64,000 bases of DNA from an uncultured virus (IMG/VR IMGVR_UViG_3300025132_000025) (Duplodnaviria > Heunggongvirae > Uroviricota > Caudoviricetes). Below the pieces are notes generated by a model. It made no database searches. It was not told the DNA's origin and saw nothing but the letters and a program-made list of their open reading frames with translations. Made by a program: the position numbers and the translations under genes. The DNA lies in the IMG/VR virus record IMGVR_UViG_3300025132_000025; one strand, 5' to 3'. Below, in pieces: positions 16,792-47,635 of the stretch. Within the stretch, counting starts at the first letter, position 1; every line of letters begins with the position of its first letter.

Positions 16792-17565
16792 ATGAAAGAT
16801 AGAACAGGAAAAGTAATTTTGAAGGCTTTAGAAAGACAGTCATGGTCAGGCTTCCATAGATTTCCTAAATGTAAAGATACGGTCATAGCTTCTCTCGGTC
16901 GAGGGGGCTATGCTACCGGTCTTACACAAAAGGAAGAAAAGGATCTTGAATCAGAACTTCAGATGAAGCCTGGTACTTTAGGTAAGTACTCAGAGTATTG
17001 GAGAGACTATACGGTTATATTAAATGACAAGGATAAAACCTTGATGTTAGAAAGACCTAGAGATTTTATTGATTATAGAATCTTAATGTCTAGTAAACGT
17101 GTAGCTAATTCAGTTAATAATTTAAAAGATTGGCCAAAAGCAGAATATGTATTGTATGATGCAGAAGAAGATGCTAAAAAGGATAATCTTAAAATTAAAG
17201 AAAAAAGGAAGGCTTATAAAACATTTAACTCAATGACAACAACTGAAATGCGTAATGTATTAAAACTAATGGGTAAGAAGTCAGAAAATGCTTCGGACAC
17301 ATTAATTGAAAATACACTTGCAGATATTTTAGATAAAGATCCAGGGAGTTTTAATGAAACTGTAGACCAACCAGATTTCAAACTTCGAGTATTTGTCGAA
17401 GATCTTAGAGGTATAAATGCTCTTCGCGTGAGAGGTGGTCACTACATGTTCGGTGATAGTGCTATTGGTCACGACTTAGAATCAGCATTATTATACTTAA
17501 AAGATCCAAAAAATCAGGATATAGTATTATCGTTAAAGTCAAAACTTAAAGCAAGTAAAAAATAA
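16792..17565 (+). CDS. Conserved crAss-like protein downstream of MCP
   Basis: Synteny; GYATGLT..EEK.LE..L and YLKDPKNQD motifs. Confidence 0.65.
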   Translation: MKDRTGKVILKALERQSWSGFHRFPKCKDTVIASLGRGGYATGLTQKEEKDLESELQMKPGTLGKYSEYWRDYTVILNDKDKTLMLERPRDFIDYRILMSSKRVANSVNNLKDWPKAEYVLYDAEEDAKKDNLKIKEKRKAYKTFNSMTTTEMRNVLKLMGKKSENASDTLIENTLADILDKDPGSFNETVDQPDFKLRVFVEDLRGINALRVRGGHYMFGDSAIGHDLESALLYLKDPKNQDIVLSLKSKLKASKK

Positions 17566-18266
17566 TGACGTTAGCAGAAATGCACATAGAATTCAAATTA
17601 GGGTTAGATAAGACAGATAGTCTTAACTACCCTAACTTTGAACCTGAAGAAATCGATCTTTGGCTTAATAGAGCTCAGGATCGTTTTGTAAAGACACGTT
17701 ATGTACACAACAACAAAACGGAAACATTTGAGGAAACGCAAAAACGTACTGATGATTTAAGAACTATTGTTACAGAAGCAACAATAATTCCGTCTGCGAT
17801 ACAAACCCCAACTAAACCAAATGGAATATTATTCGATTTGCCTGATGGGAGTATAAGTCCGGATATTTATTGGTTCGCCATTAACGAAGAATGTGAAATA
17901 CGTTATGAAGACTGCAACGGCAGTTGGGTAGACGAAAGAACAGGAGTTTATGCGACATCTCATAATGATTACGATAAGTTAGTCGATGATCCATTTAATA
18001 AACCAGACAAAGGAGTTGTCTTACGTTTAATGCATGGAAGATGGGCTGAGTTGATTACAGATGGGTCTTATACAATAAACCAGTATTTTTTGAGATATAT
18101 AAGACAACCGATTAGATTGGATATTATTAATTCTCCATTAATGTCATGTGAATTAGCAGAACATACACACATAGAAATTGTGAGTATAGCTGTTGGTTTA
18201 GCATTAGAGAATATAGCAAGTCCAAGATTCCAGAGTCATATGGTCACAGAAGTTACAGGAGAATAA
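17565..18266 (+). CDS. Head-tail connector/ring protein
   Basis: MT..EMHIEFKLGLDK..S...EEIDLWLNRAQ...YIRQP...CELAEHTHIEIV; typical of the crAss ring protein after the MCP module. Confidence 0.7.
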   Translation: MTLAEMHIEFKLGLDKTDSLNYPNFEPEEIDLWLNRAQDRFVKTRYVHNNKTETFEETQKRTDDLRTIVTEATIIPSAIQTPTKPNGILFDLPDGSISPDIYWFAINEECEIRYEDCNGSWVDERTGVYATSHNDYDKLVDDPFNKPDKGVVLRLMHGRWAELITDGSYTINQYFLRYIRQPIRLDIINSPLMSCELAEHTHIEIVSIAVGLALENIASPRFQSHMVTEVTGE

Positions 18267-19773: not shown

Positions 19774-20382
19774 ATGGCTGGAATAACAAAGGTAGACTTT
19801 AGAGTACATGAAGCATGCGATAACAAAAGTATTATATTTACAGATATTACAGGAACGTATAGTACGTTTACTCCTGGCGGTTGGGGTATACCTAACTATG
19901 AATTAGGAGATGTAATAGATGCTGAAATAATTGTAACCACACCTAGTGGTACAAAATATATATTAGACATGGCAACCATTTCACCAGACCTTCCAAACGG
20001 AACAAATGGTGAATTTAATATACATATGGGACTTCTTGGAGGAACTGCGGGACAAACCGTAATTCAAGGAATCTATGAATTCGAATATAGAATTTTAGTT
20101 AATGATGGAACTCAAGGCGGTTTCTTAATTACTAAACGAAAGTATGGATTAATGTCTAGTGTAATTAAATGTTGTGTTCATAAAATGTTAGCTAATCTTG
20201 ATATATGTGACGACTGTCCATGTGGAGAAGATAAGTCAAATGCTCTTGAAGCCTACACTCTTTATAAAGCTATGTTATATGCATATACTTGCGGTAGTTT
20301 AACTAAAGCCGCGAAAATGGCAAAGCAGGTAAATAAATTGTGTAATTATAAGGGGACTTGTGCATCATGCACATCTTCATAA
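19774..20382 (+). CDS. Structural protein (tail hub/fibre-attachment-like) with Cys-rich helical C-terminus
   Basis: FTDITGTY....GGWG N-terminal motif; C-terminal CC..K...CDDCPC; position. Confidence 0.55.
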   Translation: MAGITKVDFRVHEACDNKSIIFTDITGTYSTFTPGGWGIPNYELGDVIDAEIIVTTPSGTKYILDMATISPDLPNGTNGEFNIHMGLLGGTAGQTVIQGIYEFEYRILVNDGTQGGFLITKRKYGLMSSVIKCCVHKMLANLDICDDCPCGEDKSNALEAYTLYKAMLYAYTCGSLTKAAKMAKQVNKLCNYKGTCASCTSS

Positions 20383-20394
20383 AACAGATAGTTA

Positions 20395-21279
20395 ATGGCA
20401 TGTGAAAGTTGTTTAAACGGGTGTGTAACGCCCCAACATTGCTCGTGTGATTGTAACACGTGCGCAGAAGCAAATAGTTGTGACATTCCTGTAGGAGATA
20501 CAGGACCTGTCGGACCCGCTGGACCTATGGGACCTCCGGGTGTAAATGGTACAGACGGATTACCAGGATTAGATGGTGCCGATGGATGTACTATGACTGA
20601 TATATATATCTCTGATGGTTTAGATGGTAATACTCCTGGAGATATTATTGTAACTACAGGTACAGCAGCACCGTGTCCAAGTACATATAATGCAGGTAAT
20701 ATTATATCTACAGTATTAGGCCCAGGAGGAGCAGTTCCTGCTGGAGTTATAGTTATGTGGAGTGGACCAGTAGCAACTATTCCAACCGGATGGGCTTTTT
20801 GTGATGGTACAAATGGTACACCTGATTTAAGAGGACACTTCATAGGAGCTTATGGCTCACAAGCAATTCATGCACCTTTCAATGCTTTAAACGGTAGTGG
20901 AGGATCTTTCACAATTAATCTATCACCAAATCAGATTCCAGCACATACACATAGTGGAGCACCTTTAACAGCGGTAACAACTACTGCAGATGATTCTCAT
21001 TGTCATGTATTATGGGGAAGAAATGGGACGGGAACAGCAGTTGGTCAATTTAGAGACCCTGAATATGGAAGAAGTAATTCACCACCTGCTCAATGGTTTT
21101 CTTCAACAACTTCTCCAACTAGTCCATGTAATACAGATATAAATACACACAATCATGCTGCAAATACTACAATAGGAGGACAAACAGGAGATGGAACACC
21201 TCAACTATCAGCACCTAATGGAGCTAATGTTGATGTAACAAATAAATTTTACACTTTAGCATTTATTATGAAATTATAA
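20395..21279 (+). CDS. Tail fibre with collagen-like repeat and tail-collar domain
   Basis: Ten Gly-X-Y triplets (20494-20586); PAGVIVMWSG...IPTGWAFCDGTNGTPDLRGHF collar motif; HxH motifs; YTLAFIMKL end. Confidence 0.8.
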   Translation: MACESCLNGCVTPQHCSCDCNTCAEANSCDIPVGDTGPVGPAGPMGPPGVNGTDGLPGLDGADGCTMTDIYISDGLDGNTPGDIIVTTGTAAPCPSTYNAGNIISTVLGPGGAVPAGVIVMWSGPVATIPTGWAFCDGTNGTPDLRGHFIGAYGSQAIHAPFNALNGSGGSFTINLSPNQIPAHTHSGAPLTAVTTTADDSHCHVLWGRNGTGTAVGQFRDPEYGRSNSPPAQWFSSTTSPTSPCNTDINTHNHAANTTIGGQTGDGTPQLSAPNGANVDVTNKFYTLAFIMKL

Positions 21280-21959
21280 TGAGTAAAACAGGGATTACCA
21301 CAGTAATAACAGAATATGATATAACTTATAGATTAAATAAGTTAAAATGTTGCTTTGCTACAAAAGCAGCAGAACTAGTTGATAAACAACGTTTTGGAAA
21401 AGAATGTAAAGATGAACTATGTAATTTAAAACTCTTAGGAGCTTATATTGAAATCATTGAATGTTACTCTCCTCTTCCTTGTAATTGTGAGGGAGAATGG
21501 GAGTTAGATGGTAAACTTATTTGGACATCGTCTTTAACTATTCCATATGGAACAGTCGTTAAAGCATATATGCGACCAAACGCAAACCCCGGAGAATATT
21601 TATATTTAAGATGGCAAGGAGTTGCTACATTAGTTCCTCCAGCAGGTTCATGTACTAATCCTGTTACAGGATTTACTGCGCCGTGCATGTCTGGCTTAAA
21701 TGGAGTTGGTCCAGCAACATGGAGTGTCTGTGGTAATGTAAAAGAAGCATGGCAAGCCGCTGGAAGTAATGACTGGAACCCATCTGTAGTATATGGACAA
21801 GGAGATATAGTTAAATTTATGGGAGGAGGTGTAGGAGCAAATCAGACTAAAAGAGGTAAATACTTTATTAGTATTACAGATCCAAACCCACAAGGAGCAG
21901 GATTTCATGAAAGTGGACATTGGATAGAATTAAAATGTTTTCCTAAACAGGAGGTATAA
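21279..21959 (+). CDS. Structural protein with CBM5/12-like carbohydrate-binding motifs
   Basis: WNPSVVYGQGDIVKF and WTSSLTIPYGTVVK resemble W....Y..GD.V modules; Cys-rich N-terminus. Confidence 0.5.
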   Translation: MSKTGITTVITEYDITYRLNKLKCCFATKAAELVDKQRFGKECKDELCNLKLLGAYIEIIECYSPLPCNCEGEWELDGKLIWTSSLTIPYGTVVKAYMRPNANPGEYLYLRWQGVATLVPPAGSCTNPVTGFTAPCMSGLNGVGPATWSVCGNVKEAWQAAGSNDWNPSVVYGQGDIVKFMGGGVGANQTKRGKYFISITDPNPQGAGFHESGHWIELKCFPKQEV

Positions 21960-21977: not shown

Positions 21978-24900
21978 ATGGCTCAAGAAGATTTTCAAAA
22001 ATGGTTTACCGGATTTCGTATGAAGACGAGTACTGTAGGGGGAGCAACTCCACCTATAAACTCAAACGTTCCTGATAGGGAAGCCAACTTTTCTACAGCA
22101 ACAGTAACAGCTCGTACTGCTATGACTATAGGTGGTGAGACCTATAATGCTGGAGATGTTATGGCTTTTTCTGATGGTCATTATATTTACAATAGGACTG
22201 CTAATGTTATGGGCGGTGCTCTTAATACTGGAAGTATAAAGAGTATGCCACAATCTGTTTCTATTGTTCCTGTTCCTGATTTTTTAGCTCAAAATATTGG
22301 TGGTACAGATTATAGAGGTAAGTTATTTTGGGTATTTTCTAACGGTCATCATAATGGAATAAGGATTGGAGTAATTGATATGACCCAAAATAGTGGATTA
22401 GGAGAGTTTAAAAACTATGCACAATCTGCACAGACACCACCAAGCGGTATATTAGGAACATTAAAAGATTCAGAAAGAGGTATAGGAGGTCGTATGACTG
22501 TTATCTGTAGAAGAGGAATGAAAGGATCCGACTCACAGGAGGAAGGTTATTGGGTTATTGCAAAACAAGCTACTAAAGCTACTGATACATTTAATGATAA
22601 TGGATGGTATGTATGGGCAATAACTAGTATAAATACTACTACTAAATTTCCTACAATATCTTCAGGGCCTGCAATAACTCCAGTAGTAAGTAATGTAGGT
22701 ACAAACTATACTGGTTGGGAAGATAATGGGCCACATGGTATAGTTGATGCTACACCTCTAGAAATTAGCCCTACTGCTGTAAATGATCATAAACTAGCAA
22801 CAATTTATAGAGCTACAGTTGGTACATCTGTACTTACACAAGAAAATGATACTGTAGAAGTACTTACATTTAATGGTACTACAGGAGCTATAACTAATCC
22901 AACAACAAAAATTACAAAAGGTTTTGATAAGGGGCCTCTAGGGTGGCCAGCTCCAGTTAGCCAGCCCGCAAGATATTATAATATGTATGTTTGTTGGTCT
23001 CATGATAGTACAGCTACAACAGGTTATCTTTATTATGGTAATTATAATGTACCTGCAGCAGCTCCAGGAACTCCTGGATTACAAATTCTATGGAATGAGA
23101 TAAATAATTTAAATGTATGGTCTCTTACGAATTTAGGATCTCTAGAAGTAGAGGATAATTCAGGTACTAATATATGGAATTCTATAGGACCTGGTAGAAT
23201 TATTGGAGGTATTTGGAGAGATCCTCAAAAAGTGGGAAGAATATTTGTATCTACTCCTGAACAAACACAACAATATACACTAGCAGTAAGTTCTTCATCT
23301 CCAGTTTGGAGTATGGATTATCCAGAAATATATGGAACAGCCACTGTTGGAGTAGCGAATCCGATCCAGCATTGTATTATAGAAAATGCTGATGATCCTG
23401 TGACTACTAATCCAACTTTATCTATGGTTGGAACACTTGATAATGCAACATATTATAAGTATGGAGCTCCTCAATTTACTATTTGCGCTACAACAGCTCC
23501 TACATCTCCAGATATATCAATAAAAAAATGTGTTGGAAGACAGTATGTATTAGATACAGAAGGCTCACTTTATATATTAGATACAGCAGCTCCTGCTAGT
23601 ACAGTAAATCAAGTTACTACTTTTGGAGGTCTTACTAATTTAGTTGGTATGAGTATTAATCAATATACTGATCAACATTTTATATGGAGTTCTCCTACCG
23701 GAGGAAACAGTATAAGCTATTCAAAATTTAATAGTGATACAAGTTTAGTAGCAAATCCAGTAGCTATTGGGGGAGGTAACTTGGCTACATATGCAGATAT
23801 TCCAGTTATGGCATCTTCAACAGGCTGGGTTAATGCAGCAGGTTCAGGAACATCTAATGCAGCTTCGTTATGTAAAACGCAGGAAGGACTAGGATTAAAA
23901 GCTGGAAGTACTACTTTATATAGTTATGTTGAAATAGATACAGATGCTAATACAATAAACACTTATAATGCAGCCGCACAAATAGATATATCATCAGCTT
24001 TTAGTGGAGCTTTAGCTGGTAAAACCCCTACAGCAGCAGTAGTTTATAAAGATCACTCTACAGCAACGATTAAACAATTATGGGTAGCTTTTGGAGATAG
24101 AATAGCTTACCTTAACCGCTTAACTAATTCATGGACATTAGTTACAGCTACAGCCCCAGCAAATATTACTGCTTTACAAATTACGAATAGTGGAGCAACA
24201 CCAACTATATGGGTATATTCAGGGGCTGCAGGATCAACAATTAGTCATTCAGGAGTTCCTTCTGCAGGGGCTGGATTTACATTTACAGCTTTTGCAACTT
24301 CTATTATTACCGATCCTGGAAGCTTTCCATGGTTAAAACTTCCTATATCTATAGGGGGCCAAAATGCTGCCCAGTATTTTGATCATTCTCCTTTACGTAT
24401 AACTTCATCACATCCTGACTATTTAGTTTATGAATCTACTTGTGATGATGCATTAAATGACACTTGGAAACAAGCTGTTACAGGTGAACATAGAGGATGT
24501 TTTTATTGTGGTGGTGAGATTACAGACTGGAAGCATGATGTTACATGTGATTGGCTTTTACCTGATCAAACTTTTTCACAATGTAGATTTTGTGTAGAAG
24601 ATTTATTTGATGAGTGTGTTGCATTATACCCATGTTGTAATATAGAAACTGACCCACCTTTAACGAGTGGTATGGGTCCAGTAGAGCTACCTGGTATTGT
24701 AACAAATACAGGATCAGTTACTGTAGGTAATACATACTCAGCTAGTGCAGGTGGAGCTACACCTGTTTGTTCAGTAGCTGTAACTCCAGAGAATCATTTT
24801 TGGTTTACCTCTGAAGATGGTAATATATATTCAATAGATAATTCAATACTAGGAACTTGTTCAATTTCTGCATTTTCTGTACAGAATGGTCTTATACCAG

Positions 24901-27900
24901 ATTTAAAAGATGTAACTTTTGATAAGCATGGTAATGTTATATATACATCAAGTGTATCAGATATATCTTGGGCATCCGCTTTAACAGTAAATTATATATC
25001 ACCTGGAGAACTTATTTCAAATACATTTAATGTACCTCAATGTTTAGATTATGATTATTCTGCTACAGGGCATATTGTAGGAGGAGATATGGTAGCAGCA
25101 GTTGCTACATTTACTAGATATACAAATTCTTTAGGTGGAGGTTTAGCTATAGCTACTACTGTAACTAATGCTACAATTAGCTTAGGGTATGATTTAACTG
25201 TTGATTATAATAGTGGTGATTACTTTGTACTAGGAGATGAGACTGGAGGAGGAGGTTTAAATAAATTACTTAGTATCGATGATGCTAATGGTAATCATAC
25301 ATTAATATCTGATATAGCTACTGTTTGTAGTTTTGTAGCAGGTCAAAATGCATATGGTATAGAAAGAATTAGAACGGCTCAATCAACAAGTGCTATGTAT
25401 GTTCTATCTGCTATACAAATAGGATTAGGTCCTATTGAAATATACCTACACGAATTAACGGATGATGGAAGTACTCAAGTATCTGTAATACCATTAACTA
25501 ATCCAGTAACAGCAACAAATAGCTGGACTAACATTCCTACTGGACTAGGTTATAATGATGTATGTTCGAAATGGCCAAATAATATAGATCCAAATCTAAC
25601 TAATTATACTGATTGTAATACATGTATTTCTGATCCAAGCACAGAAGATTGTTGTTATAAATTAACAAACTGTGATACAGGAGCTATACAATATAGTACT
25701 CAAGGTTTATTAGATCCTTATGTTGGAGGTGTAATAAGACTTACAGGAGATACATGTTGGGAGGTAGAAAGATCTTTATACTGCAATAGTCCAGTAACAG
25801 TAATCCCAGCAACCTCTCCTGGCCCTTATGCAGACTGTGCAGCATGTGATGTACCAGACCCTATTTACTATAAATTACCTAAATGTGGAGATGCTAGTAA
25901 TGTTGTGTATACAGTTAATGGAGCAACAGCTGTATCAACTCCAGGTATAGATGGTTATTTTGCAGCAGGAGTAGTAGTTAACTTAACTGGAGAATGCTTC
26001 TGTAGAGAAGTACAACTTAATCCTTCAGGCCCACAAGGAACTGAAGCTAATTTAAGTGTAGCAAGTACACAAGTTGATTGTGCTAATTGTATATATTACT
26101 TAAGAGTTGAAGATTGTGTTACCGGTGCTATAATTAATGTTGATTATGCGTCATCAACAACACTTCATCCTTTCATAGGAGCAGCTAATGCCCATGATAT
26201 TACAATAGGAGGAGTAGCTCAAGATAACTGTTTTAAAGTATTAGTAGGCTGTATAGGCCCTACAACAGTAACATATCCTACTGCAGCTATAACTGCAAGT
26301 TACGCTGATTGTGCAGCATGTGCGACTGCAGGTCAAACATGTGTAAAAGTATCACATTGTTGTGGAACTAGTTATGTACCAGATCAAATTGTTAATGTAA
26401 CAACAGGAATTACAGCAGCAGATGTTGGAGCAGTAGTACAAGCAGATATAACAGTAGCTGGTGTTATTTATACAGGGTGTTGGACAGTAAGTGCTAATGC
26501 TGATTGTGTAGGTGTATTACCAGACGCAGATGTAAATGCAATTAATACTGCAACAGTAGGTACAGGTAATATGCCAGATTGTACTTATTGTTTAATTGAT
26601 CCATGTCCTTTAGAATGTACACTACTAGAATCATGTACTGATCCAGGTATTACTATTACTGTATCAGGAGGATTAGGAAATAGTATTGGAACAGATGTCG
26701 TAGAATTATCTGGACAATTAGGATGTTGGAAACAATGTTTAACATCAGGAAATCCAATAGCAGGTACACATTGGTTCTATGGAGAAAGGCTCGGAATAGA
26801 TTTTAGTTCGGGAGCACCTGTGTCTGATATGAATGGAATGTCTGATATGCTTACTTACAACGCTAGTAATGCTATAGGTGCTGATGCTTGGACATTTAGA
26901 GGATCAGCAGTTCACTCTGCAACAGAAGCCGCTACTCTAGGTGGACACGCTTTTGCGGCAGGAGATTTAATGTTCTATACTGACGGTCATTATATATATG
27001 ATAGAACTCATACTAAGATGAACCTTGATTCGGGAGCTGTACATAAAGGAGATGCAAATGTAGGAACAGTAGGTGATGATGGAAAAACATTCCCAGCTCA
27101 AGGAGCATTAGTTATACCAAATGCAGCAGGAGGATTAGTAGGAAATGTATGGAAACAATATTATGTTATACAAAATTCATGTCATAATGGTCCTATAAAA
27201 TGGTCTATTGTTGATATGACTTTAAACAGTGGAAAAGGAGAAGTATTAGCTGCATCGGCTAATACTACATTAGTAGCAAGTGCCGCTGAGATGATGTGTG
27301 TTAATACTACAACTGGAATAGGATCAGGAGCTTACTGGCATTTCTTCTTTATACCTCCTATGGCTAATGGTACTGACCTTAATAATCAGAATATTCAAGC
27401 TATTAAATTTAGTAACGCCGGAATAGGTACACCTTTTATGGCAGTAGATATGCCATTTGGTAGATGGGATTCTTCCAATATCCAGTTTTCAGGAGAGATG
27501 GTGGTTAATCAAACAAATGATATTATAGCAATAAGAACAAATCAGTCAAAAACTGGATTTAATCAAAACTGGATATTGCATGTTTGGGGGCTAAACCCTA
27601 CTACAGCGTTATCTGCTACAGCTACTACTGGATTAATCAGTAATGATGGCTGGAATGCAGGAGCTCAAAATGGAGCATATTCTTGGATTCTAGGAGGATC
27701 TTACCAAGAACAAAATGTTACATTTGGAGGATATACTGGATTTTTAGGTATGGATAAACCTAGGACTCTAGCATTTAGTGCGGGTGGAGACTACCTCATT
27801 TACGCATATGCAAATTATTATGAGCCTTCTGATCCATTTAATTTACCTTTAGTTCAATCTGGATGGGGTCTAAATGTGATGAAAATAAAAGACTATGCAA

Positions 27901-30900
27901 ATGAATTAATGATTACAAATGGATGGGTAACGCCTAGTTCAACTAATGATGGAAATACCTTTGATACTGATCCTAATAAATATATGTTTTCTTTCCCTGT
28001 TGTTGGTTCTTCCCCAAATACGACACTTTCCCAAAAAACATTCCCTGACGCTTCTACTGCTAGTGGATGGTTAGGAGGAACTCCGCCAGATGAAACTAGA
28101 TGTAATGTTGCAATTACAGATATGACTATGGGTCCTGATAATAACTTATGGTTATCTATGGTAGAATGGACTCAAGATGATATATATAAATTATCAATAG
28201 GACAAGGACAACAGGTTACAAATTCTCTATTAAGACTTAGTAATCCTACTAGTGGTGTATCAATAGAAGATCAATTAACATTTGTAACTCCAGTAGGATC
28301 ATTTGATATTGGTAATAGACGAATGGGAGAAAGATTCCCAGTATGGTTAAATATGCCTTGTCCGTGTGATCCGGCAAATGTTATAAGCCCAGATCCTACA
28401 ATTACAGCTACACATACTGATTGTACAGATTGTGCACCTCCACCAAACTTCTGTTATAAATTAACAGAATGTGAATGTACTGGAGGGACATCAGGATATA
28501 ATCAATGTGCTGTAAATGATCCAGCTACAATGCCTGCTCCTATGGTTACATACGGAAAGAGTTGGTCACCAACTTGTACTTCTGGAAATGTAACTCAAAG
28601 ATGGCAAGCAATAGTAAATGCAGTACAAGCATTAGGAACTACTGCATCACCAGGTATAGCACAAACAGTAAACTTTAGCTATAGCTTTATTAATGATGGG
28701 GCTACATTCCCATTAGGAGGAGGGTATCCAGGATTTGGACCAGCTAAAGCTGTAGAACAAGGGCCAGGTACAGCTAATCCAACAGGTACTAGTAGTGCAT
28801 GTGCTCCTTATAATAAAACATATCAAATTACATTTGTACAGTTTAGAGCAGAAATGGTAACAATGTTTAATAACATTAAAGCTATGTTCGAAGGAATGTT
28901 TAATACAAATTGTGGATATGGAGCTAACCTAACTGTTAACTTTACAGATTTAGGATATGAAACTGGATATACTGCAGGTGATCCAGCAATGGGAACAAAT
29001 ACTATAGCAAGTTCTAATGGAACATCTTTTACTGATAGTAATGGAGTAGCAGGAATAGGAGACTTTAGAATTGGTTTTGCAGACTTCGGAGCTATAGATG
29101 GCCCTTGTGGAAATACAGGAGCAGCGTCAGGAATATTAGGATTATGCTTTACAGGAGATATAAATAATAATAACCCAGGAATTGCTAAAACTTCTCCGTA
29201 TGTAGGTTTATTATTATTCGATGCAAATGAAGATTGGAGAAAAGCAGGAGATGCCGTAGTAGCAAATTCATTTGATTTAATCAGAGTAGGTATACACGAA
29301 ATACTACACGCATTTGGATATGGTCATGATTTCTTAACCTTTGGTCCTCAAGCTGCAAATTGTGATTGTCCTTGTTATCAATCTGATTCTACATGCCCTA
29401 GTATGTATCCAACACCAGCTGGAGTTATTCCTAATGGTGATGCTTTGATGGGACCATTTGCAACCACTGCTTCTTTTGGTACTGTATTCCCAACTGGTCT
29501 TATGGGCCCAGAAGGAATATATGATAGAAGAGCTACATGTGGTATTTACGGAAATGATGATCCAAACTATGCATGTCAAGATGGAGTATGTTTAGGTAGT
29601 GGATGTACATATATTACAGAATACTCTGATGATCCAGCGCTTTCAGCATATGTAGGAGGAATAATAACTTGGGATAATGGAGATGCAGCAGGAGAAAGAT
29701 GTTGGACTGTTGAAATAGAAAACCCATGTCCAGCAGGAGTTCCACTAGTTAATCCTGTAAATTTAGTTTCAGGAAACCCAACTGGAGATTGTGATGATTG
29801 TGATCCAGTAAGTCCATGTTGGACATTAGATTTATGTAGTTGTGATACTAGTATGGGAGCACCAGCTCAAATAATTACTACTACAGATATGTCAGGATAT
29901 TGTGACGGAACAATAGGTACAGGAACTGTAGTAGAAATAGATCTATACCCAGGAGCATGTTATGAAATAAATTGTGCGGGACCAGATCCTTGTCCTGCAG
30001 CTGGAACAGTCGCTGTTGTAGTTACAAATACATATCCAGCTTGTGTAGACTGTTGTAGTTCAACGCAAACATGTTATCAATTATGTCCTTGTACCCCTAG
30101 TTATGACTCGTGTAGTGCAGCAACTTTAATATCTACTACTATTGCAGGATATTCACAAAATTATCAGGAATATTCCGTAAATACTCCAACTGATACGCAT
30201 AACAGTAAAAAGTTAATTACTGGTTCACTGCCTAGCAGCTCAGGTGTATGTTATGATAATGTTACTGGAAACGCTATAGCTAGATTGCAAGGAATACGTA
30301 TTTATAAATGTGGTACTATGAATGATCCATTAGATGGTATGACTAATTATTATTGGAGTCAAGCTCAGAGTTGGTCTACAGCTAGAGCTGAACTAGTAGC
30401 AGCAGGTTATGGTAATGCTACTATGGATTATGATACAATGAAAGCATGGTTGCAAGCCAACTATGTTAGTCTGGATGGAACATTAGCTTGTTTTGCAATA
30501 AATGGAGGGCTTTGTTTCTGTAATAGTACTTGTACTGTAGTAACAAATGATCTATCTGGTCAATTAGGAGATGTAGTAACACTAGGAGGAGCGCCACCAG
30601 CACCATTAAATACAACTGAATGTTATGAAGTTCAGGCATGTGGTACATGTGGAACAGGTTCATGTAACCCAGTAGGAGCAGTTGTTATAAATACAGTTCA
30701 TCCAAATTGTCCAGATTGTGTAGCTGGTGGAGGATGTATTTGTTATAAATTAACAGATTGTTCAGATCCAAACATTGTTATTAATAATGTATGCCAGAGT
30801 GCGGCATTAGATACAGCATTTATAAATGGAGATATAATACAAATAAATGGAAACACTCAAACTTGTTGGGAAATAGACTGTGATGATAATAATATGTGTG

Positions 30901-32972
30901 ATCCTGGTACTTGTTTAGCTGTAGCAGTAACTGCATCGTTTGCATCATGTGCAGCTTGTTTAGGTTCACAGATGTGGGAATGTGATCCAATGGGAGGATG
31001 TAATTGTGTACCATCAGCAGGAGCAGGGTTTGCAACCCAAGCGGCATGTTTAGCAGATCCACCTTGTTGTCCTAATCCAGACTCATGGGATTGTGACCCT
31101 GTTACAGGAACATGTTATGATCCAGGCACAGGCCTTGGTCAGTACGCTAGTGTATCGGCATGTATACAAGATTGTGGTACACCAGAATCATATAATTGTA
31201 TTTATAGTGCATCTACTAATCAGTATAGTTGTTCTGATCCAGGAGATGGTTCAGGTACCTTTGCAACATTAGTTGATTGTACTACTGCAGTATCTACGAA
31301 TACACAACCGTGTTATGTAGAATCATATAACTGTGTTGTAAATAATGGAGTAACACAATGTCTAGATCCTGGAGATGGAAGTGGAGCATTCAATAATACT
31401 AATGGAGGTTTAGCAGCTTGTGCTGCATGCAACGGATGTCCAACAGATCCAACATGTGCCGGAGTAACAGTAACATATGACTGTGATCCAGCATTTGGAT
31501 GTATACCAAACTATGCAGGAACAGGACAATACCCAACCTTACAAGATTGTGCTGTAGACTGTGCTAGTTACGAACCAGAAGAAGGAACATTTGAAACTAC
31601 ATGTGAGAATTGTTTAGATGAAATAGATATGAAAAAGTTCTTTGATAAAGTAGCTGATGTATGTGATGATTGTAATGTACCATTTGGATTAACTGATCAA
31701 GAAGTAACGTGTGATACAGGATGCTTTGGTAATAGTAATATATATGTATTCCTAGATATAACTTCAACATTTGGAGGTACATTCCTAGAAAGGTTACAAA
31801 AAGCTGTACAGTTTAAAGTAGATGTAATTGAACCTGCTTTTGCTCAGATACAAACAGATAATCCAACATACTCAGGACATCTATATATTATTCCTGGGGC
31901 TTGGCCTCACGGGTCACAGTTTGGTCCTTGTAATAATTGTAATGGAACAGGAGCAGCAGCACCAGGTAGTAATACAGCACCAGAAGATTGGTTGGCTTGG
32001 GTTAACTATCCGATGAGTGGTAATGCGGGAGCAAATGGAGCCGGAGCAAACCCAATGGCAACAGGAACTTTACCTGCAAACCAGAGAACAATTATGGGAC
32101 ACACAATGGTTAATGGAGTAGGAGGAGCACCATTTGATTGTAATATACCAGCATACGAGGCTGCTGTACACGGACCTTTATTACAACAGTTAATGATCTT
32201 ACCTGGTTCTTATAACACAGATGGATTTAATCAGGTTAACCCATGGCAAGATCCTATAGGCCAAGAAGGATTTAGTGATCCTTATCATGAATTTGAGGGA
32301 GGAGATAATGACGCTATTGTGATTATATTCCAAGATGAGTCTAGAGGTAATCCAGGCGGATACCATGAAACCAATACTAATGTTAATCAGTGGGGAGGTA
32401 CTTGTGGAAATGCGTTATGGGGAGGTGCTCCAGGTATTAACTGGCACAGTATAGGAACAGGACCAGCTAATGCGCTACAGCCACAATGGAAGAATGATTA
32501 TAATAACTTTATGAGTCTTCATGAGTTTGGTTGGAATGCAAGCGGAGTGTCTAATGCTGCTTCATCATCATACAATGTTACATTAAAAACAATGATATAT
32601 GCAGGGTCTTGGGTTGATCACAGTACAACAGCTGTTGTAGATACAAGAAGAGATTTCTTATATCACTTAATGGGAGCAGTAGGAGCTCAGAGTCTTGATG
32701 CAAATATATCTTTTGCTGGTCATATAGATTGTGCAAGTTATGTAGGTGTTCCAGCAATGTACGGATTCGAGTGTTTTGTAGCAACAGATGTTACTATACC
32801 AAATCCATATATGGGAGCAGCAGGCGGGGGAGATCCTACGCTTACTACTGGTTATCTGGGAGGTTCATTAAGTAATTATAACATGACTTTCCATATACCA
32901 GATTATCCGATAATGGATCTAAGTTCTACAATGTTGTATGATTTATGGAAAGAATATTTATCAGATTGCTAA
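21978..32972 (+). CDS. Giant (3664 aa) Cys-rich modular tail fibre/adhesin with beta-propellers, matrixin-like metalloprotease and C-terminal VWA-like domain
   Basis: Uninterrupted ORF in the tail-fibre module; repeated CYKLxxC...CWxV...YxDCxxC units; HEILHAFGYGH plus ALMGP Met-turn; NIYVFLDITS...IVIIFQDES. Confidence 0.75.
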   Translation: MAQEDFQKWFTGFRMKTSTVGGATPPINSNVPDREANFSTATVTARTAMTIGGETYNAGDVMAFSDGHYIYNRTANVMGGALNTGSIKSMPQSVSIVPVPDFLAQNIGGTDYRGKLFWVFSNGHHNGIRIGVIDMTQNSGLGEFKNYAQSAQTPPSGILGTLKDSERGIGGRMTVICRRGMKGSDSQEEGYWVIAKQATKATDTFNDNGWYVWAITSINTTTKFPTISSGPAITPVVSNVGTNYTGWEDNGPHGIVDATPLEISPTAVNDHKLATIYRATVGTSVLTQENDTVEVLTFNGTTGAITNPTTKITKGFDKGPLGWPAPVSQPARYYNMYVCWSHDSTATTGYLYYGNYNVPAAAPGTPGLQILWNEINNLNVWSLTNLGSLEVEDNSGTNIWNSIGPGRIIGGIWRDPQKVGRIFVSTPEQTQQYTLAVSSSSPVWSMDYPEIYGTATVGVANPIQHCIIENADDPVTTNPTLSMVGTLDNATYYKYGAPQFTICATTAPTSPDISIKKCVGRQYVLDTEGSLYILDTAAPASTVNQVTTFGGLTNLVGMSINQYTDQHFIWSSPTGGNSISYSKFNSDTSLVANPVAIGGGNLATYADIPVMASSTGWVNAAGSGTSNAASLCKTQEGLGLKAGSTTLYSYVEIDTDANTINTYNAAAQIDISSAFSGALAGKTPTAAVVYKDHSTATIKQLWVAFGDRIAYLNRLTNSWTLVTATAPANITALQITNSGATPTIWVYSGAAGSTISHSGVPSAGAGFTFTAFATSIITDPGSFPWLKLPISIGGQNAAQYFDHSPLRITSSHPDYLVYESTCDDALNDTWKQAVTGEHRGCFYCGGEITDWKHDVTCDWLLPDQTFSQCRFCVEDLFDECVALYPCCNIETDPPLTSGMGPVELPGIVTNTGSVTVGNTYSASAGGATPVCSVAVTPENHFWFTSEDGNIYSIDNSILGTCSISAFSVQNGLIPDLKDVTFDKHGNVIYTSSVSDISWASALTVNYISPGELISNTFNVPQCLDYDYSATGHIVGGDMVAAVATFTRYTNSLGGGLAIATTVTNATISLGYDLTVDYNSGDYFVLGDETGGGGLNKLLSIDDANGNHTLISDIATVCSFVAGQNAYGIERIRTAQSTSAMYVLSAIQIGLGPIEIYLHELTDDGSTQVSVIPLTNPVTATNSWTNIPTGLGYNDVCSKWPNNIDPNLTNYTDCNTCISDPSTEDCCYKLTNCDTGAIQYSTQGLLDPYVGGVIRLTGDTCWEVERSLYCNSPVTVIPATSPGPYADCAACDVPDPIYYKLPKCGDASNVVYTVNGATAVSTPGIDGYFAAGVVVNLTGECFCREVQLNPSGPQGTEANLSVASTQVDCANCIYYLRVEDCVTGAIINVDYASSTTLHPFIGAANAHDITIGGVAQDNCFKVLVGCIGPTTVTYPTAAITASYADCAACATAGQTCVKVSHCCGTSYVPDQIVNVTTGITAADVGAVVQADITVAGVIYTGCWTVSANADCVGVLPDADVNAINTATVGTGNMPDCTYCLIDPCPLECTLLESCTDPGITITVSGGLGNSIGTDVVELSGQLGCWKQCLTSGNPIAGTHWFYGERLGIDFSSGAPVSDMNGMSDMLTYNASNAIGADAWTFRGSAVHSATEAATLGGHAFAAGDLMFYTDGHYIYDRTHTKMNLDSGAVHKGDANVGTVGDDGKTFPAQGALVIPNAAGGLVGNVWKQYYVIQNSCHNGPIKWSIVDMTLNSGKGEVLAASANTTLVASAAEMMCVNTTTGIGSGAYWHFFFIPPMANGTDLNNQNIQAIKFSNAGIGTPFMAVDMPFGRWDSSNIQFSGEMVVNQTNDIIAIRTNQSKTGFNQNWILHVWGLNPTTALSATATTGLISNDGWNAGAQNGAYSWILGGSYQEQNVTFGGYTGFLGMDKPRTLAFSAGGDYLIYAYANYYEPSDPFNLPLVQSGWGLNVMKIKDYANELMITNGWVTPSSTNDGNTFDTDPNKYMFSFPVVGSSPNTTLSQKTFPDASTASGWLGGTPPDETRCNVAITDMTMGPDNNLWLSMVEWTQDDIYKLSIGQGQQVTNSLLRLSNPTSGVSIEDQLTFVTPVGSFDIGNRRMGERFPVWLNMPCPCDPANVISPDPTITATHTDCTDCAPPPNFCYKLTECECTGGTSGYNQCAVNDPATMPAPMVTYGKSWSPTCTSGNVTQRWQAIVNAVQALGTTASPGIAQTVNFSYSFINDGATFPLGGGYPGFGPAKAVEQGPGTANPTGTSSACAPYNKTYQITFVQFRAEMVTMFNNIKAMFEGMFNTNCGYGANLTVNFTDLGYETGYTAGDPAMGTNTIASSNGTSFTDSNGVAGIGDFRIGFADFGAIDGPCGNTGAASGILGLCFTGDINNNNPGIAKTSPYVGLLLFDANEDWRKAGDAVVANSFDLIRVGIHEILHAFGYGHDFLTFGPQAANCDCPCYQSDSTCPSMYPTPAGVIPNGDALMGPFATTASFGTVFPTGLMGPEGIYDRRATCGIYGNDDPNYACQDGVCLGSGCTYITEYSDDPALSAYVGGIITWDNGDAAGERCWTVEIENPCPAGVPLVNPVNLVSGNPTGDCDDCDPVSPCWTLDLCSCDTSMGAPAQIITTTDMSGYCDGTIGTGTVVEIDLYPGACYEINCAGPDPCPAAGTVAVVVTNTYPACVDCCSSTQTCYQLCPCTPSYDSCSAATLISTTIAGYSQNYQEYSVNTPTDTHNSKKLITGSLPSSSGVCYDNVTGNAIARLQGIRIYKCGTMNDPLDGMTNYYWSQAQSWSTARAELVAAGYGNATMDYDTMKAWLQANYVSLDGTLACFAINGGLCFCNSTCTVVTNDLSGQLGDVVTLGGAPPAPLNTTECYEVQACGTCGTGSCNPVGAVVINTVHPNCPDCVAGGGCICYKLTDCSDPNIVINNVCQSAALDTAFINGDIIQINGNTQTCWEIDCDDNNMCDPGTCLAVAVTASFASCAACLGSQMWECDPMGGCNCVPSAGAGFATQAACLADPPCCPNPDSWDCDPVTGTCYDPGTGLGQYASVSACIQDCGTPESYNCIYSASTNQYSCSDPGDGSGTFATLVDCTTAVSTNTQPCYVESYNCVVNNGVTQCLDPGDGSGAFNNTNGGLAACAACNGCPTDPTCAGVTVTYDCDPAFGCIPNYAGTGQYPTLQDCAVDCASYEPEEGTFETTCENCLDEIDMKKFFDKVADVCDDCNVPFGLTDQEVTCDTGCFGNSNIYVFLDITSTFGGTFLERLQKAVQFKVDVIEPAFAQIQTDNPTYSGHLYIIPGAWPHGSQFGPCNNCNGTGAAAPGSNTAPEDWLAWVNYPMSGNAGANGAGANPMATGTLPANQRTIMGHTMVNGVGGAPFDCNIPAYEAAVHGPLLQQLMILPGSYNTDGFNQVNPWQDPIGQEGFSDPYHEFEGGDNDAIVIIFQDESRGNPGGYHETNTNVNQWGGTCGNALWGGAPGINWHSIGTGPANALQPQWKNDYNNFMSLHEFGWNASGVSNAASSSYNVTLKTMIYAGSWVDHSTTAVVDTRRDFLYHLMGAVGAQSLDANISFAGHIDCASYVGVPAMYGFECFVATDVTIPNPYMGAAGGGDPTLTTGYLGGSLSNYNMTFHIPDYPIMDLSSTMLYDLWKEYLSDC
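25650..30962 (+). repeat. About 9 degenerate Cys modules (CYKLTxC...G.V....CWxV....YxxCxxC) in the giant fibre
   Basis: Protein-level repeats: CYKLTNC, YYKLPKC, YLRVEDC, CVKVSHC, CTLLESC, CYKLTEC, CWTLDLC, CYQLCPC, CYKLTDC. Confidence 0.75.
30975..31565 (+). repeat. Five short Cys repeats ([WY]xC....C.DPGxGxGx[FY]....C...C)
   Basis: WECDPMGG..., WDCDPVTG..., YNCIYS..., YNCVVN..., YDCDPAFG... Confidence 0.7.
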
Positions 32973-35067: not shown

Positions 35068-36213
35068 ATGATACTACAAATAACGCACGAAGGTCAATTA
35101 GTAGGACGATATATTAGTTTAACCGAAGCGTCTGAAAGAACAGATATTGATAAAGGCAGTATCTGCAAAGTTTTAAAAGGTCAGCGTAAAAGCGCTGGAG
35201 GGTTTAAATGGGAGAGAGAAGAAGATGAAATTGATAATGATAATATAAATATCAATGATTCTGACTTTAACTCTTTATTAACCGCCGAAGGATTAGACCG
35301 ATCCAACGTCAAGTCTGTGAAGATATGGCAAACAATGAAGGGTCAAACTCGTTACTCTATAGTAACAAAAGAGGGAGATCAAGCGATGAGAGATGTGAAA
35401 GATGAGTTCTTTGAAAGTTTAAAATCTATATCCCCTACGATTCTAAAAAGATCGTATGATATAAAAAAGGAGAATCCTGTTGTATATGAAATATCTTTAC
35501 CAGATATTCATTACGGTAAGAGAACAGGTATTAGTCCTGAGCAGGCTGAGATTAATTATATGAATTCAATTCAGGAATTACATCAGCGAGCAGAAGGATT
35601 AAATATTGAAAGGTTCTTACTTCCTATAGGTAATGACGGAATGAATTCTGAAGGTGCTAGTAGGGCCACAACGAAAGGAACTCCTCAAGATGATACAATG
35701 GACTGGCAACAATCTTTTGTTGGGTATACAAAGCTAATGATAAAAGCTATAAATTATCTAAGCCAGTATGCTCCAGTAGATGTAGTAGTAGTTCAAGGTA
35801 ATCACGATCATGAGCGTATGTTTTATGCAGGTGAAGTTTTATCTGCGTGGTATATGCAAGATAAGAATGTTACTGTAGACAATAGTACAGAAGGAAGAAA
35901 GTACTATGAATACGGAACCAACATGATTATGTTTACTCATGGGGATAAAGAGAAAGCTGCACAGATGCCACTAATAATGGCTACAGAGCAGCCGATGATG
36001 TTTGCACGAACTAAATTTAGAGAAGTTCATTGCGGACATCTTCATAAAGAAATGGTTAACGAGTATAGAGGAATTAAAGTCAGATTTGTTCCTTCAATAT
36101 GCGCTAACGATTCTTGGCACAAACTGATGGGGTATTCCGCATCAAGATGTGCTCAAGCATATATATGGAATAAGGAAAAGGGATGTGAAGGTTATTTACA
36201 GGTAAATATTTAA
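35068..36213 (+). CDS. NUMOD1 domain fused to calcineurin-like metallophosphoesterase
   Basis: YISLTEASERT.IDKGSICKVLKGQRKSAGGFKW (NUMOD1); DIHYG, GND, GNHD, HGD, GHLH motifs. Confidence 0.8.
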   Translation: MILQITHEGQLVGRYISLTEASERTDIDKGSICKVLKGQRKSAGGFKWEREEDEIDNDNININDSDFNSLLTAEGLDRSNVKSVKIWQTMKGQTRYSIVTKEGDQAMRDVKDEFFESLKSISPTILKRSYDIKKENPVVYEISLPDIHYGKRTGISPEQAEINYMNSIQELHQRAEGLNIERFLLPIGNDGMNSEGASRATTKGTPQDDTMDWQQSFVGYTKLMIKAINYLSQYAPVDVVVVQGNHDHERMFYAGEVLSAWYMQDKNVTVDNSTEGRKYYEYGTNMIMFTHGDKEKAAQMPLIMATEQPMMFARTKFREVHCGHLHKEMVNEYRGIKVRFVPSICANDSWHKLMGYSASRCAQAYIWNKEKGCEGYLQVNI

Positions 36214-36217
36214 GCTA

Positions 36218-36946
36218 ATGACAAATTTAAATACAATAGTATACGATATACAAAACATAGCATATGGAGGCGAAAGCTCCGATGATGCAAGTTTAAGCTT
36301 TAGACAGTGTGCATACTGGGTAAAGCAAGAACGCTCTATGCTATTATCGCAGATGATGAGCAGAAAGGTTCGAGTACCTTCTGTTTGTGTTGAATATCTA
36401 AATTGTGTTTATTTGGAACCAGTCGACGCTTCAGAATGTTGTGAGCTCGAACTTGGGGTTCATGTGCTTAAATCTGTAAACCCTATTCCCACGACTATCC
36501 AGCGAAACGGTAGAGATAGTATATTAGCCGTAGAATCTTTAGATGGTATGAGACCTTTCTCAGAGACCACAGATACCCGCCGAAAGTGGAATAAGTATAA
36601 TAAATATACCGGCTCCAATCAAAGATGGTATCTAAAGAATGGCTACTTATATGTAAGTTGCGACATTCGTATAGAAGCAGTAAAAGTTACAGGAGTGTTT
36701 GAAGATCCAGAGGAAGTTTGGAAAATAAACCACTGCACGTCGTCACAGAATCCAATCCTTTCTGCTTGTGAATATGACTGGGAATACCCTTTTCCGATTT
36801 CATTATCTATGGCAGAACAGGTTACTAGTATAATACTTCAAAAGAGAATTAATATAATTTTAAATGCACCAAGCGATGAAGAAAACAACGCGAAAGACGA
36901 TGGGGCGCAAATGCAGCCAGCTCCTAGACAAAACTCCGCAGGCTAG
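36218..36946 (+). CDS. Tail ring/structural protein
   Basis: LN.IVYDI...SDD..LS.RQ...VFEDPEEV...YPFP pattern of crAss ring proteins; synteny. Confidence 0.65.
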   Translation: MTNLNTIVYDIQNIAYGGESSDDASLSFRQCAYWVKQERSMLLSQMMSRKVRVPSVCVEYLNCVYLEPVDASECCELELGVHVLKSVNPIPTTIQRNGRDSILAVESLDGMRPFSETTDTRRKWNKYNKYTGSNQRWYLKNGYLYVSCDIRIEAVKVTGVFEDPEEVWKINHCTSSQNPILSACEYDWEYPFPISLSMAEQVTSIILQKRINIILNAPSDEENNAKDDGAQMQPAPRQNSAG

Positions 36947-46700: not shown

Positions 46701-47635
46701 ATCTGTCTAAGAAGCAATACTTCAAGGCTTTAGAAGCACGTTTATTATCTGAAGGTAAAGATGTTCAAGATATTAAATCTATTATAGAAAGAGAAAAAAT
46801 AGCTTATGATGAGAATCTAGTTAATCTCGAAAATATAGAAAATAATAAACCTTTAACTGACAAGGAGAAAGCGGATGCTTTAGCTAAACAGTTAAGGAAC
46901 CAAGAACTTATGAAAAAGTTTGGTAACTTTGCAAATAATGCATTAACAGATTTAAAGACATTAGCTCCATCAATTTATAACATGAAGAAATCAAAAGAGG
47001 GAGCAGAGATTGAGCCATTTGTATCTAACACAAATGAACTTAGAATAGATCGAAATCTTGATAGACTTACTAATTCTTTTGATATTCAAAGTATGCTAGA
47101 TGAGAATGAAATGAACTTTAATAACTTAAAGTATTTAATGAGAGATGTGTCTGATGGAAACAGTGGTAATGCTATGAATGCATTACTAAGAGGACAGTTA
47201 AGCCAGAACGAAGCAGATCGTAAAGCTTTCTTAACTGAAGCGCAATTAGAAACACAAGGATTACAAATCCAGAATGAATCATTATTTAACTTAGGAGAAA
47301 GAAATAGACAAGAGCAAGTCAGAGTTAATGAGGCTAATGCTATGAATAGAGCAGCACAAGAAGCGTTTGAAGCAAAAGGATGGGAAGGACTTTCTGGTTA
47401 CTCTCAATTAAAAGATCAAATGGCTAATCAAATGTCTAACGACAAGCAATTAGCTCAAATGCTTAATATGATTTATCCTGATGCTCATTTATATATGAAT
47501 AGAAATGGTACTATGGATATTAATAAGTTAATGCAGAGTGGAGATTTAGATAAACTTATGGAACAATATCCACAATTAAAGGAGTATATAGGAAATTATT
47601 TTAAGAATAATACAGATAACGAAAACGAAGAATAA
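43736..47635 (+). CDS. Virion cargo/ejection protein 1
   Basis: 1299 aa after the muzzle gene; EAEGGE...NGPSHEKGGI...YVFS motif; repeated xxGG motifs; hydrophobic Gly-rich segments; C-terminal coils. Confidence 0.65.
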   Translation: MANKKKKTKKSNSYWMKYGGDPRKMHKGGFAHPEPHPKNATDAELRGAQIWSTAYTEDNEGNKKNLEKRNTYNWGDDKQSDVNAFTNSQWFNFFPDTLKSAPQTIQDLQEYEDAIGANRTRTIQLNDTDFSWDDAILYGGAPLAGWLGASQIPQSVPTPWTQGLGLLMKGLGVGIAGGKMYYDMSVKRGENERLKLENPYATFVDSDGRILNYEDGDGLFFNVFHPNNKSWPVTNRGIRDTPVPLEDVTTPDKQITFAMGGNPYRKRYEGGGNPYHVSSQKNITEDPTFKMWFAKNATRSDVMQSNSDPQALKQLFLNDINFAGNEMPLFSGEIDGYGNVDKSNRSAELSSKIIGGMKKFGGHGHSYKTSRIPKAELGMGTGLYESPSENFSDYSNVNQLGLDGRNANANQLIGSAGEDGTFSNYVLKAFNYVIPGLGTGLDIVADIFGHAGNVQQHEDMVSDAHEAEANLRLLNNPEANKETLDLSTRKSGLTAIASYNKSGIERPTYDWGELASNVLDIAGNYVGGTPKVGDATDSPIDFNNIGADDLLNTGDDLLVRYGGNPKKMNHGGVPHDEGANAFQPGTGIDIIGHQFNPLGQSAMFESQGTAGNSFNTGGDPNAEIYEAEGGEAIIHPPGAIPPTSDGDTTQVDGNPNEAMVSMLNGPSHEKGGINVQSEDGQYVFSKSLNSKTWGMSYADAAEKIGKNIAKFKTEMEEGDEITKSTAASMIEAWTQKLNDLQSEQETTRQTKFMELLNSGAAPEELQEKYPDIFQQYMQQQQQEQLSEVAMQSIAGPQGGMQDNPMGNIDMSQLSTQDQQLVTAKYGGTPKAENGFDPYDFNRYFGEIFDNNDFESFDLNKKYQPNRGDVMDWLTANYPDGGFEIGDETFMNNKDAYKALMSGFGDWRSGELSDLNVPGSKPNKYNEPYMVETTTKNPWYVEGGTEDEFITGMDWADGGKELFQQDKNLWNYYNMGLGVDWDENFGMDANLSKKQYFKALEARLLSEGKDVQDIKSIIEREKIAYDENLVNLENIENNKPLTDKEKADALAKQLRNQELMKKFGNFANNALTDLKTLAPSIYNMKKSKEGAEIEPFVSNTNELRIDRNLDRLTNSFDIQSMLDENEMNFNNLKYLMRDVSDGNSGNAMNALLRGQLSQNEADRKAFLTEAQLETQGLQIQNESLFNLGERNRQEQVRVNEANAMNRAAQEAFEAKGWEGLSGYSQLKDQMANQMSNDKQLAQMLNMIYPDAHLYMNRNGTMDINKLMQSGDLDKLMEQYPQLKEYIGNYFKNNTDNENEE

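Follow-up and report, generated by a model that had tools for sequence, protein, structure and literature searches.

A stretch of 64,000 nucleotides from an uncultured tailed virus (IMG/VR record IMGVR_UViG_3300025132_000025; this stretch is called the window below) contains an open reading frame (ORF) at 21978..32972 that encodes a giant protein of 3,664 amino acids (aa) with 152 Cys (4.1%). The locus raises the question of whether a small repeated Cys module can host whole domains within its own fold, as a sequence-only reading of this DNA had proposed when it described the protein as a Cys-rich stalk with adhesin and enzyme domains plugged into its repeats. Every string quoted in that reading is present in the ORF in the frame given. 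Here, the comparison of module profiles, orthologs and predicted structures supports that at least two modules (M5 and M6) are interrupted by whole domains and then resumed, and a third one (M8) probably is as well. We consider it reasonably probable that the product is a giant virion-surface protein in which a backbone of Cys modules carries whole domains inserted in its loops, most likely as a distal component of a tail fibre or adhesin. All coordinates are positions of the window, on the plus strand.

The ORF corresponds to a real gene because 13 orthologs of its product were found, with 3,202-3,844 aa and 37-93% identity; the resulting set comprises 14 sequences including the reference P0001, to which the identities of inserts and domains refer. 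No nucleotide match to the gene was obtained by megablast against the phage collection, a PHROGs search with the whole protein returned 0 families, and Pfam gave only a sub-threshold Peptidase_M10 match. Also, a profile of the whole family matched no PDB sequence at E<=1, and the accessible parts of the literature yielded no description of this protein or of its Cys module.

Ten tandem copies of a Cys module of ~65-85 aa (M0-M9) are found in the protein, separated by linkers of 1-9 aa, and six of them are intact: M1-M4 (aa 1226-1290, 1297-1371, 1373-1448 and 1455-1538; 25653..26591), M7 (aa 2614-2692; 29817..30053) and M9 (aa 2922-2994; 30741..30959), all recognized by the module profile. These six align with four invariant Cys. 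A profile built from them was compared with 1.84 billion representative proteins and gave 18 proteins at E<=0.001, 7 being orthologs or fragments of the giant family and 11 being other proteins of 200-871 aa. The latter, taken as an outgroup, contain 35 module matches, and no Pfam or PHROGs family covers the module in them. A hidden Markov model (HMM) built only from 30 full-length modules of these 11 unrelated proteins scores M1 (CYKLTNC...YADCAAC) with 55.7 bits. Six full copies are present in each of the 14 orthologs, M1 of P0014 reaching only 3.6 bits, and among the 33 ORFs of the window a credible match occurs in the giant one only, the four other hits being noise (<=2.6 bits, E>=0.26). 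The repeating module that had been noticed by eye is thus real and, judged by profile comparison, is a previously undescribed family.

The module comprises ~63 match positions, with Cys at 7, 36, 60 and 63 and a covarying pair at 1 and ~45; C1 to C4 denote here the Cys at positions 1, 7, 36 and ~45, and the last two form a CxxC turn. Over 100 full-length modules from all proteins, the Cys frequency is 1.00, 0.99, 1.00 and 0.95 at positions 7, 36, 60 and 63, respectively, and ~0.75 at positions 1 and 45. In the predicted structure, the intact M7 and M9 begin with two strands and a short helix and continue with three more strands and a terminal helix; M7 is modelled with five strands in all. Each module would therefore read as strand 1, strand 2, short helix, strands 3-5 and the CxxC turn, and it is on this order that the predicted insertion sites are placed below.

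The clearest case of interruption is M6. Its N part (aa 2159-2167, CYKLTECEC; 28452..28478), corresponding to strand 1, gives 8.2 bits over HMM positions 1-8, and its C part (aa 2543-2608, CTYITEYS...CDDC; 29604..29801), with strands 2-5 and the CxxC, gives 21.1 bits over positions 19-52, so that 375 aa would lie between strands 1 and 2. When ortholog alignments of module parts were compared with the outgroup modules by hhalign, for which two control segments gave a probability of 0.2-0.3, these two parts reached 80.9 (columns 1-8) and 94.3 (columns 19-64). In the 14 orthologs alike, the partial M6 match lacks the first HMM positions. Splicing both parts together raises the score to 28.1 bits (+7); when the N part was shuffled 200 times, the score averaged 19.1 +/- 1.7 and reached 28.3 at best. 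Moreover, C1 (2159) and C4 (2584), located on opposite sides of the insert, are both present in 10 orthologs and both absent in 3, making 13 of 14 concordant.

For M5, the N part (aa 1547-1587, CTLLESC...CWKQC; 26616..26738), covering strands 1-4, is recognized with 23.0 bits over HMM positions 1-38 and a hhalign probability of 96.7 (columns 1-39). The C part (aa 2127-2152, CPC...HTDCTDC from 2128; 28356..28433), with strand 5 and the CxxC, is a weak match of 7.2 bits over positions 52-63; its Cys 2128, 2130, 2149 and 2152 are invariant among orthologs. The insertion would be placed here between strands 4 and 5. In the case of M8, the C part (aa 2852-2914, CTVVTNDLS...CPDC; 30531..30719), extending from the C2 position to the CxxC, is significant (23.6 bits over HMM positions 15-63; hhalign 97.5, columns 7-64). 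Its N part (aa 2699-2705, CYQLCPC; 30072..30092), a putative strand 1 ahead of an insertion between strands 1 and 2, carries the exact strand-1 motif without a significant profile match.

That motif, in the strict form C[YFW].[LI]..C, is found five times in the protein. Three copies start M1, M7 and M9 and the other two (2159 and 2699) stand directly before the inserts of M6 and M8, both exactly 6 aa past the CxxC of the previous module, where the spacing between all modules is 1-9 aa. In 2,000 shuffles, the mean number of copies was 0.07-0.08 and the maximum 2.

An alternative, which we regard as unlikely, is an arrangement of beads on a string, where large domains lie beside modules truncated or decayed by recombination and the peptides resembling strand 1 never rejoin the C parts. 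Several observations weigh in this direction and against the interruption of modules. The C part of M5 has a hhalign probability of only 8.7. The N part of M8 has one of 0.2 and adds no score, its splicing even lowering that of the C part from 23.6 to 19.0 bits. Both M6_C and M8_C start with a Cys aligning near the C2 position, M8_C from column 7, so they could be modules merely devoid of strand 1, and P0012, which keeps C1 only, violates the C1/C4 pairing of M6. M0 (aa 880-935, insert 936-1200, aa 1201-1216; 24615..25625), the fourth split module of the sequence-only reading, is not supported by the profile. Its strings (CVALYPC...CSVAV at 880-935 and, after ~265 aa, YTDCNTC at 1210-1216) give hhalign probabilities of 0.2 for the N part and a weak 33 for the C part; Cys 880, 886, 887, 931, 1196, 1213 and 1216 of this region are invariant among orthologs.

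The predicted structures speak on both sides. In an AlphaFold2 model of aa 2155-3000 based on 14 sequences (mc6b47e7c7661), M6 and M8 show the same order of strands and helices as the intact M7 and M9, with the first strand placed ahead of the insert. Strand 1 of M6 is modelled as a strand with a predicted local distance difference test (pLDDT) of 75 beside a disordered stretch, which would require a pairing partner far away along the chain. However, the same model has a mean pLDDT of 60.2 and a predicted template modelling score of 0.35, and in a second model (aa 1455-2158) both halves of M5 remain unfolded at pLDDT 26-37. A complex prediction with the M5 halves as separate chains (aa 1540-1592 and 2118-2158) scored 0.31 against a mark of 0.32, without controls, and weighs on neither side. 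Searches with the model of aa 2155-3000 by VIA-align and Foldseek gave matches dominated by the domain inserted in M6.

Against the arrangement of beads stand the exactly complementary profile coverage of the two parts of M5 (1-38 and 52-63) and of M6 (1-8 and 19-52), the enrichment and placement of the strand-1 motif, and the C1/C4 concordance across the M6 insert. Also, the 7-aa N peptide of M8 keeps 86-100% identity in the 13 orthologs, whereas in 10 of them the adjoining insert is only 19-28% identical to that of P0001. Finally, the same split pattern is observed in P0023, one of the unrelated outgroup proteins, where HMM positions 1-30 match aa 209-238 and positions 35-64 match aa 354-384, with a module-like segment at 256-315 in between; this appears to be a split at a third loop, with a module nested in a module. 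Altogether, the mapping of the HMM along the protein, which the sequence-only reading had suggested as a check, recovers M5_N, M6_N, M6_C and M8_C, gives weak matches for M5_C and M0_C, and misses M8_N and M0_N. The claim of split modules then stands for M5 and M6 on complementary profiles and linkers, and on C1/C4 for M6; it is probable for M8, where only the C part is significant, and it is not supported for M0. Structure prediction agrees with this for M6 and M8 in the order of secondary structure and gives no support for M5. In the interrupted modules, the two halves would come together again in three dimensions around the passenger.

The chemistry that holds the module together admits two readings. 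One is that C2, C3 and the CxxC bind one zinc, making a zinc-stabilized rather than a disulfide-stabilized mini-domain, to which we give not quite an even chance. Virions are assembled in the reducing cytoplasm, which is in line with a metal site. The same holds for the four Cys being conserved at 95-100% in 100 modules and invariant in the six intact copies, and for a single CxxC being placed at the start of the terminal helix in the model. On the other hand, the additional C1/C4 pair is gained and lost together, as disulfide partners would be, which suggests an oxidized functional state: over the 100 full modules, both are present in 75, C1 only in 0, C4 only in 4 and neither in 21, and for the outgroup modules alone the counts are 23, 0, 4 and 12, many modules in these counts being orthologous and thus not phylogenetically independent. 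Disulfides are favoured because of this covariation and because disulfide bonds that stabilize the tail are documented in crAss001, according to the portion of the report available to us (PMC10172136). In either case, the array of modules would act as a stiff stalk or spacer, covalently or metal stabilized, that hosts the passengers.

Of these passengers, the one in M6 (aa 2168-2542, 375 aa; 28479..29603) had been taken for a metalloprotease of ~370 aa, and this assignment holds in the sense of a metzincin-like zinc protease. The zinc motif HExxHxxGxxH appears as HEILHAFGYGH (aa 2440-2450) with a following Asp (HEILHAFGYGHD at 2440-2451), where all 14 orthologs retain H2440, E2441, H2444, G2447 and H2450. 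The same is true for the residues A2489, L2490, M2491, G2492 and P2493 of the Met-turn (ALMGP, 2489-2493), in which Met2491 would lie beneath the zinc site. The model of the insert superimposes on the catalytic domains of the matrix metalloproteinases MMP-2, -9, -12 and -20 (five chains) with VIA Z scores of 8.3-9.0 and root-mean-square deviations of 2.9-3.7 Å over 118-150 residues. Foldseek matches are weak (best E 0.039), the pLDDT of the model is modest, and in Pfam the Peptidase_M10 and Reprolysin_5 families are hit at E 7e-4 with 20.0-20.4 bits, not reaching the gathering cut-offs of 24-27. The insert is read as a metzincin-like protease with an intact predicted zinc site. A search for shorter proteins with this domain gave four, three of which (1,569-1,799 aa) look like partial orthologs and the fourth is a 95-aa fragment, with no sign among them of a free-standing donor. 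A search for related loci with the insert gave two orthologous viral contigs (L002 and L003).

The insert of M5 (aa 1588-2126, 539 aa; 26739..28355) is β-propeller-like, as had been suspected. The core of its model (m1ee9aba7063e) reaches a pLDDT of 70-89, and Foldseek returned 48 matches at E<=0.001, the rows listed being nearly all propeller-containing proteins (GH43, TolB, sialidase and WD40) with a target-normalized template modelling score of at most 0.41 among the matches listed. The N-terminal variable domain (aa 1-820; 21978..24437) is a paralog of this insert (BLASTP E 6e-14 over 117 aa; hhalign probability 98.9 and E 3e-17 over 257 columns), and on the basis of the model, both qualify as predicted propeller folds. 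For M0, whose insert had also been called a propeller, hhalign of one half against the other gave a probability of 1.7, and repeated D..G strings are seen by eye only. The insert of M8 (aa 2706-2851, 146 aa; 30093..30530) is a hypervariable domain of ~150 aa, as revealed by the comparison of orthologs.

The ten module positions and the inserts are kept in all 14 orthologs. Variability is greatest in the N-terminal domain (31-45% identical to that of P0001, excluding P0002 with 90%), in the second half of the M5 insert and in the M8 insert, and conservation is greatest in the protease and the C-terminal domain. The M5 inserts fall in three classes that are 25-35% identical to one another. The flanks of the M8 insert are 45-100% identical, and in P0011 and P0013 this insert is about double in length (312-314 aa), with two copies discernible by eye. 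Moreover, a comparison of P0014, the most distant ortholog, with P0005 reveals an overall identity of 43.8% and flanks of 43-53%, and the similarity peaks in the M8 insert at 76%, as an exchange would give; the left edge of this similarity is blurred, M7 itself being well conserved. This suggests that the M8 insert has been exchanged between lineages. The expectation that inserts would be swapped at the same sites is then borne out for M8, hypervariable and apparently swapped. However, at three of the four sites all 14 homologs carry orthologs of one and the same insert, and this argues against free swapping at every site. The variable passengers (N-terminal domain, M5 insert and M8 insert) would probably contact the host surface, and the conserved protease would probably cut a proteinaceous layer on it.

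Downstream of M9, the protein continues with five smaller Cys repeats of ~35-40 aa each (aa 2999-3200; 30972..31577), read from the sequence and with a motif distinct from that of the main module, a W/Y-x-C near the start and a D-P-G-x-G-x-G core being present in each copy. They have no credible Pfam match at E<=10 (the sole row is Epiglycanin_C, E 0.1 and 13.3 bits), and only unnamed clusters correspond to them in the Atlas. The conserved C-terminal domain (aa 3201-3664, 464 aa; 31578..32969) is 51-97% identical in the 11 orthologs having it. Its Atlas feature matches to von Willebrand factor A (VWA) clusters, at 0.85-0.89 and all below 0.9, are a weak lead, and it holds a DxTxT string (VFLDITSTF), a variant of the DxSxS of the metal-ion-dependent adhesion site. 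Pfam gave neither a vWA family nor another credible match for it at E<=10; a vWA-like nature is possible and is given as a lead only.

What kind of virion component this would be is suggested by the neighbouring genes. The window belongs to a viral record of 65,972 bases with an estimated completeness of 75%. Pfam matches in it include Crass_capsid (486 bits), a P22-like portal, Ring 3/4, Ring 2, Ring 1 and the muzzle, and the terminase, the portal and the major head protein are recognized by PHROGs. Among 149 matching phage records, mostly of crAss-like phages of Bacteroides and Flavobacterium, none exceeds 44.6% identity to the capsid protein. By gene content, the window is from a divergent crAss-like phage, of a marine lineage because members of the ortholog cluster bear TARA ocean sample names; contigs bearing the orthologs are of about 87 kb. 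The giant gene sits between Ring 3/4 (17565-18266) and Ring 2 (36218-36946), which is the position of the tail block in Crassvirales. It is preceded by three ORFs rich in Cys (4.4-5.0%; 202, 294 and 226 aa; 19774..21959), and the 294-aa one, located two genes upstream, encodes a collagen-like tail-fibre protein that matches Pfam Collagen and, at E 1e-14 to 1e-12, tail-fibre families of PHROGs. The Cys content of this fibre cluster is 4.1-5.0%, whereas three large ORFs after the muzzle contain 0 Cys in 6,744 aa, and this difference fits an exposed role of the cluster.

These three ORFs, at 43736-47635 (1,299 aa), 47638-51021 (1,127 aa) and 51044-64000 (at least 4,318 aa, cut by the end of the window), all on the plus strand, matched no Pfam or PHROGs family; their position would be that of the cargo proteins ejected by crassviruses or of their virion RNA polymerase proteins. 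Other genes of the plus strand were also noted. Right after the portal gene, a 638-aa protein without Cys (12063-13979) has an SLT lytic transglycosylase domain (Pfam E 3.5e-12); it is probably located inside the virion and degrades cell walls. Within the tail block, a 381-aa ORF (35068-36213) combines a DNA-binding region like the NUMOD of I-HmuI with a match to metallophosphatases and DNA-repair exonucleases (phrog_704, E 6e-60). Upstream of the lysis and packaging genes, a 563-aa ORF (1812-3503) has 18 Cys and a C-terminal half that looks repeat-rich by eye, and has no match in Pfam or PHROGs.

The same architecture could belong instead to a head fibre, a capsid decoration or another surface appendage rather than to the primary receptor-binding protein, a reading that we hold to be quite improbable. 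In crAss001, the head-fibre genes gp21 and gp29 share the structural region with the tail-fibre genes, according to the sections available of its structural description (PMC10172136). The giant protein is matched by no PHROGs tail family. In addition, no special conservation is seen in its first 40 residues (36% mean pairwise identity), so that its N terminus shows no evident counterpart of the peptide by which crAss001 gp22 docks, a point that counts against a tail-fibre assignment. By contrast, the collagen-like ORF with tail-fibre matches upstream, the length of 3,664 aa together with the probable protease, and the propeller-like domains being the most variable parts, as host-contact domains would be, all favour a distal tail component, none of them being decisive. 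The roles in fibre formation and receptor binding would follow from the position of the gene, and we infer that the protein is present in the virion, binds and catalyses.

Proteins with the module are also found in other crAss-like phages. On the crAss-like metagenome contig L005, the gene of P0028, a 604-aa outgroup protein, has a ring-3/4-like gene (phrog_15924) on one side and Ring 2 and Ring 1 on the other, and on the metagenome contig L007 a relative of it is followed by Ring 2, Ring 1 and the muzzle. Since this slot is the same as that in the window, the module looks like a unit from which environmental crAss-like phages build the proteins of their fibre slot. A related-locus search with P0017 gave no locus among the viral contigs. 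Six of the 11 outgroup proteins (P0017, P0019, P0023, P0024, P0025 and P0028) have in common a conserved, Cys-containing C-terminal region of ~80 aa (BLASTP E 6e-13 to 2e-22) that is absent from the giant family. These six consist of a variable N-terminal domain (BNR- or PA14-like, with weak scores), 2-6 modules and then this region, which may be a virion-attachment domain. A broader proposal, to which we commit only tentatively, is that the module is a dedicated insertion-tolerant chassis of environmental Crassvirales fibres. It would accept passengers in at least three loops (1/2, 3/4 and 4/5), even a copy of itself as in P0023, and the recombination of M8-type passengers between lineages, with the chassis left unchanged, would allow host specificity to change in a plug-in manner.

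How crAss-like phages recognize their hosts is poorly understood, and tail fibres are not resolved even in the atlas of crAss001, as far as its accessible sections tell (PMC10172136). The giant family brings to this subject an undescribed compact module stabilized by Cys. Its probable virion-borne metzincin points to a proteinaceous barrier at the host surface, and a hypervariable, exchangeable passenger could mark a determinant of specificity. If the module tolerates insertions in several loops, it would also be a natural display scaffold for protein engineering.

Among known systems, the metzincins (matrixins, serralysins and adamalysins) share with the M6 insert the HExxHxxGxxH motif with its Asp, the Met-turn and the MMP fold match. 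The insert differs from them in scoring below the Pfam cut-offs, in its ~375 aa with long stretches of low confidence, and in being embedded in a loop of a 75-aa module. The tail-fibre apparatus of crAss001 (gp22 and its partners on the tail hubs THA/THB) occupies the same structural block of Crassvirales, and the tail there is stabilized by disulfides, as stated in the available portions of that work (PMC10172136). However, the giant protein is far larger and no similarity to these fibres was detected (0 PHROGs families, homology to gp22 not having been sought directly). In p-crAssphage, the BACON-repeat protein, like giant repeat adhesins, also presents small domains in tandem on a crAss-like surface protein, but it belongs to another repeat family and the parts of its description at hand mention no nested passengers (PMC6949934).

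A close parallel is found in the adhesion devices of lactococcal and streptococcal siphophages, whose "evolved" Dit and Tal proteins likewise house a binding domain inside another domain (PMC6669499, PMC7533335, PMC10688798, in the sections accessible). According to these sources, one or few insertions into the galectin-like Dit or into Tal are present, and the passengers are carbohydrate-binding modules. No sequence relation between the giant protein and Dit or Tal was found; here, in contrast, a small Cys module is the host several times per chain and the passengers include a protease and propeller-like domains of ~540 aa. Domain insertion in the adhesion proteins of phages is then already known from the siphophage Dit and Tal, as far as those descriptions reach, and what is new in the giant protein is a small repeated Cys host module that is absent from the libraries, its repeated nesting in one chain, and the types of passengers that it carries.

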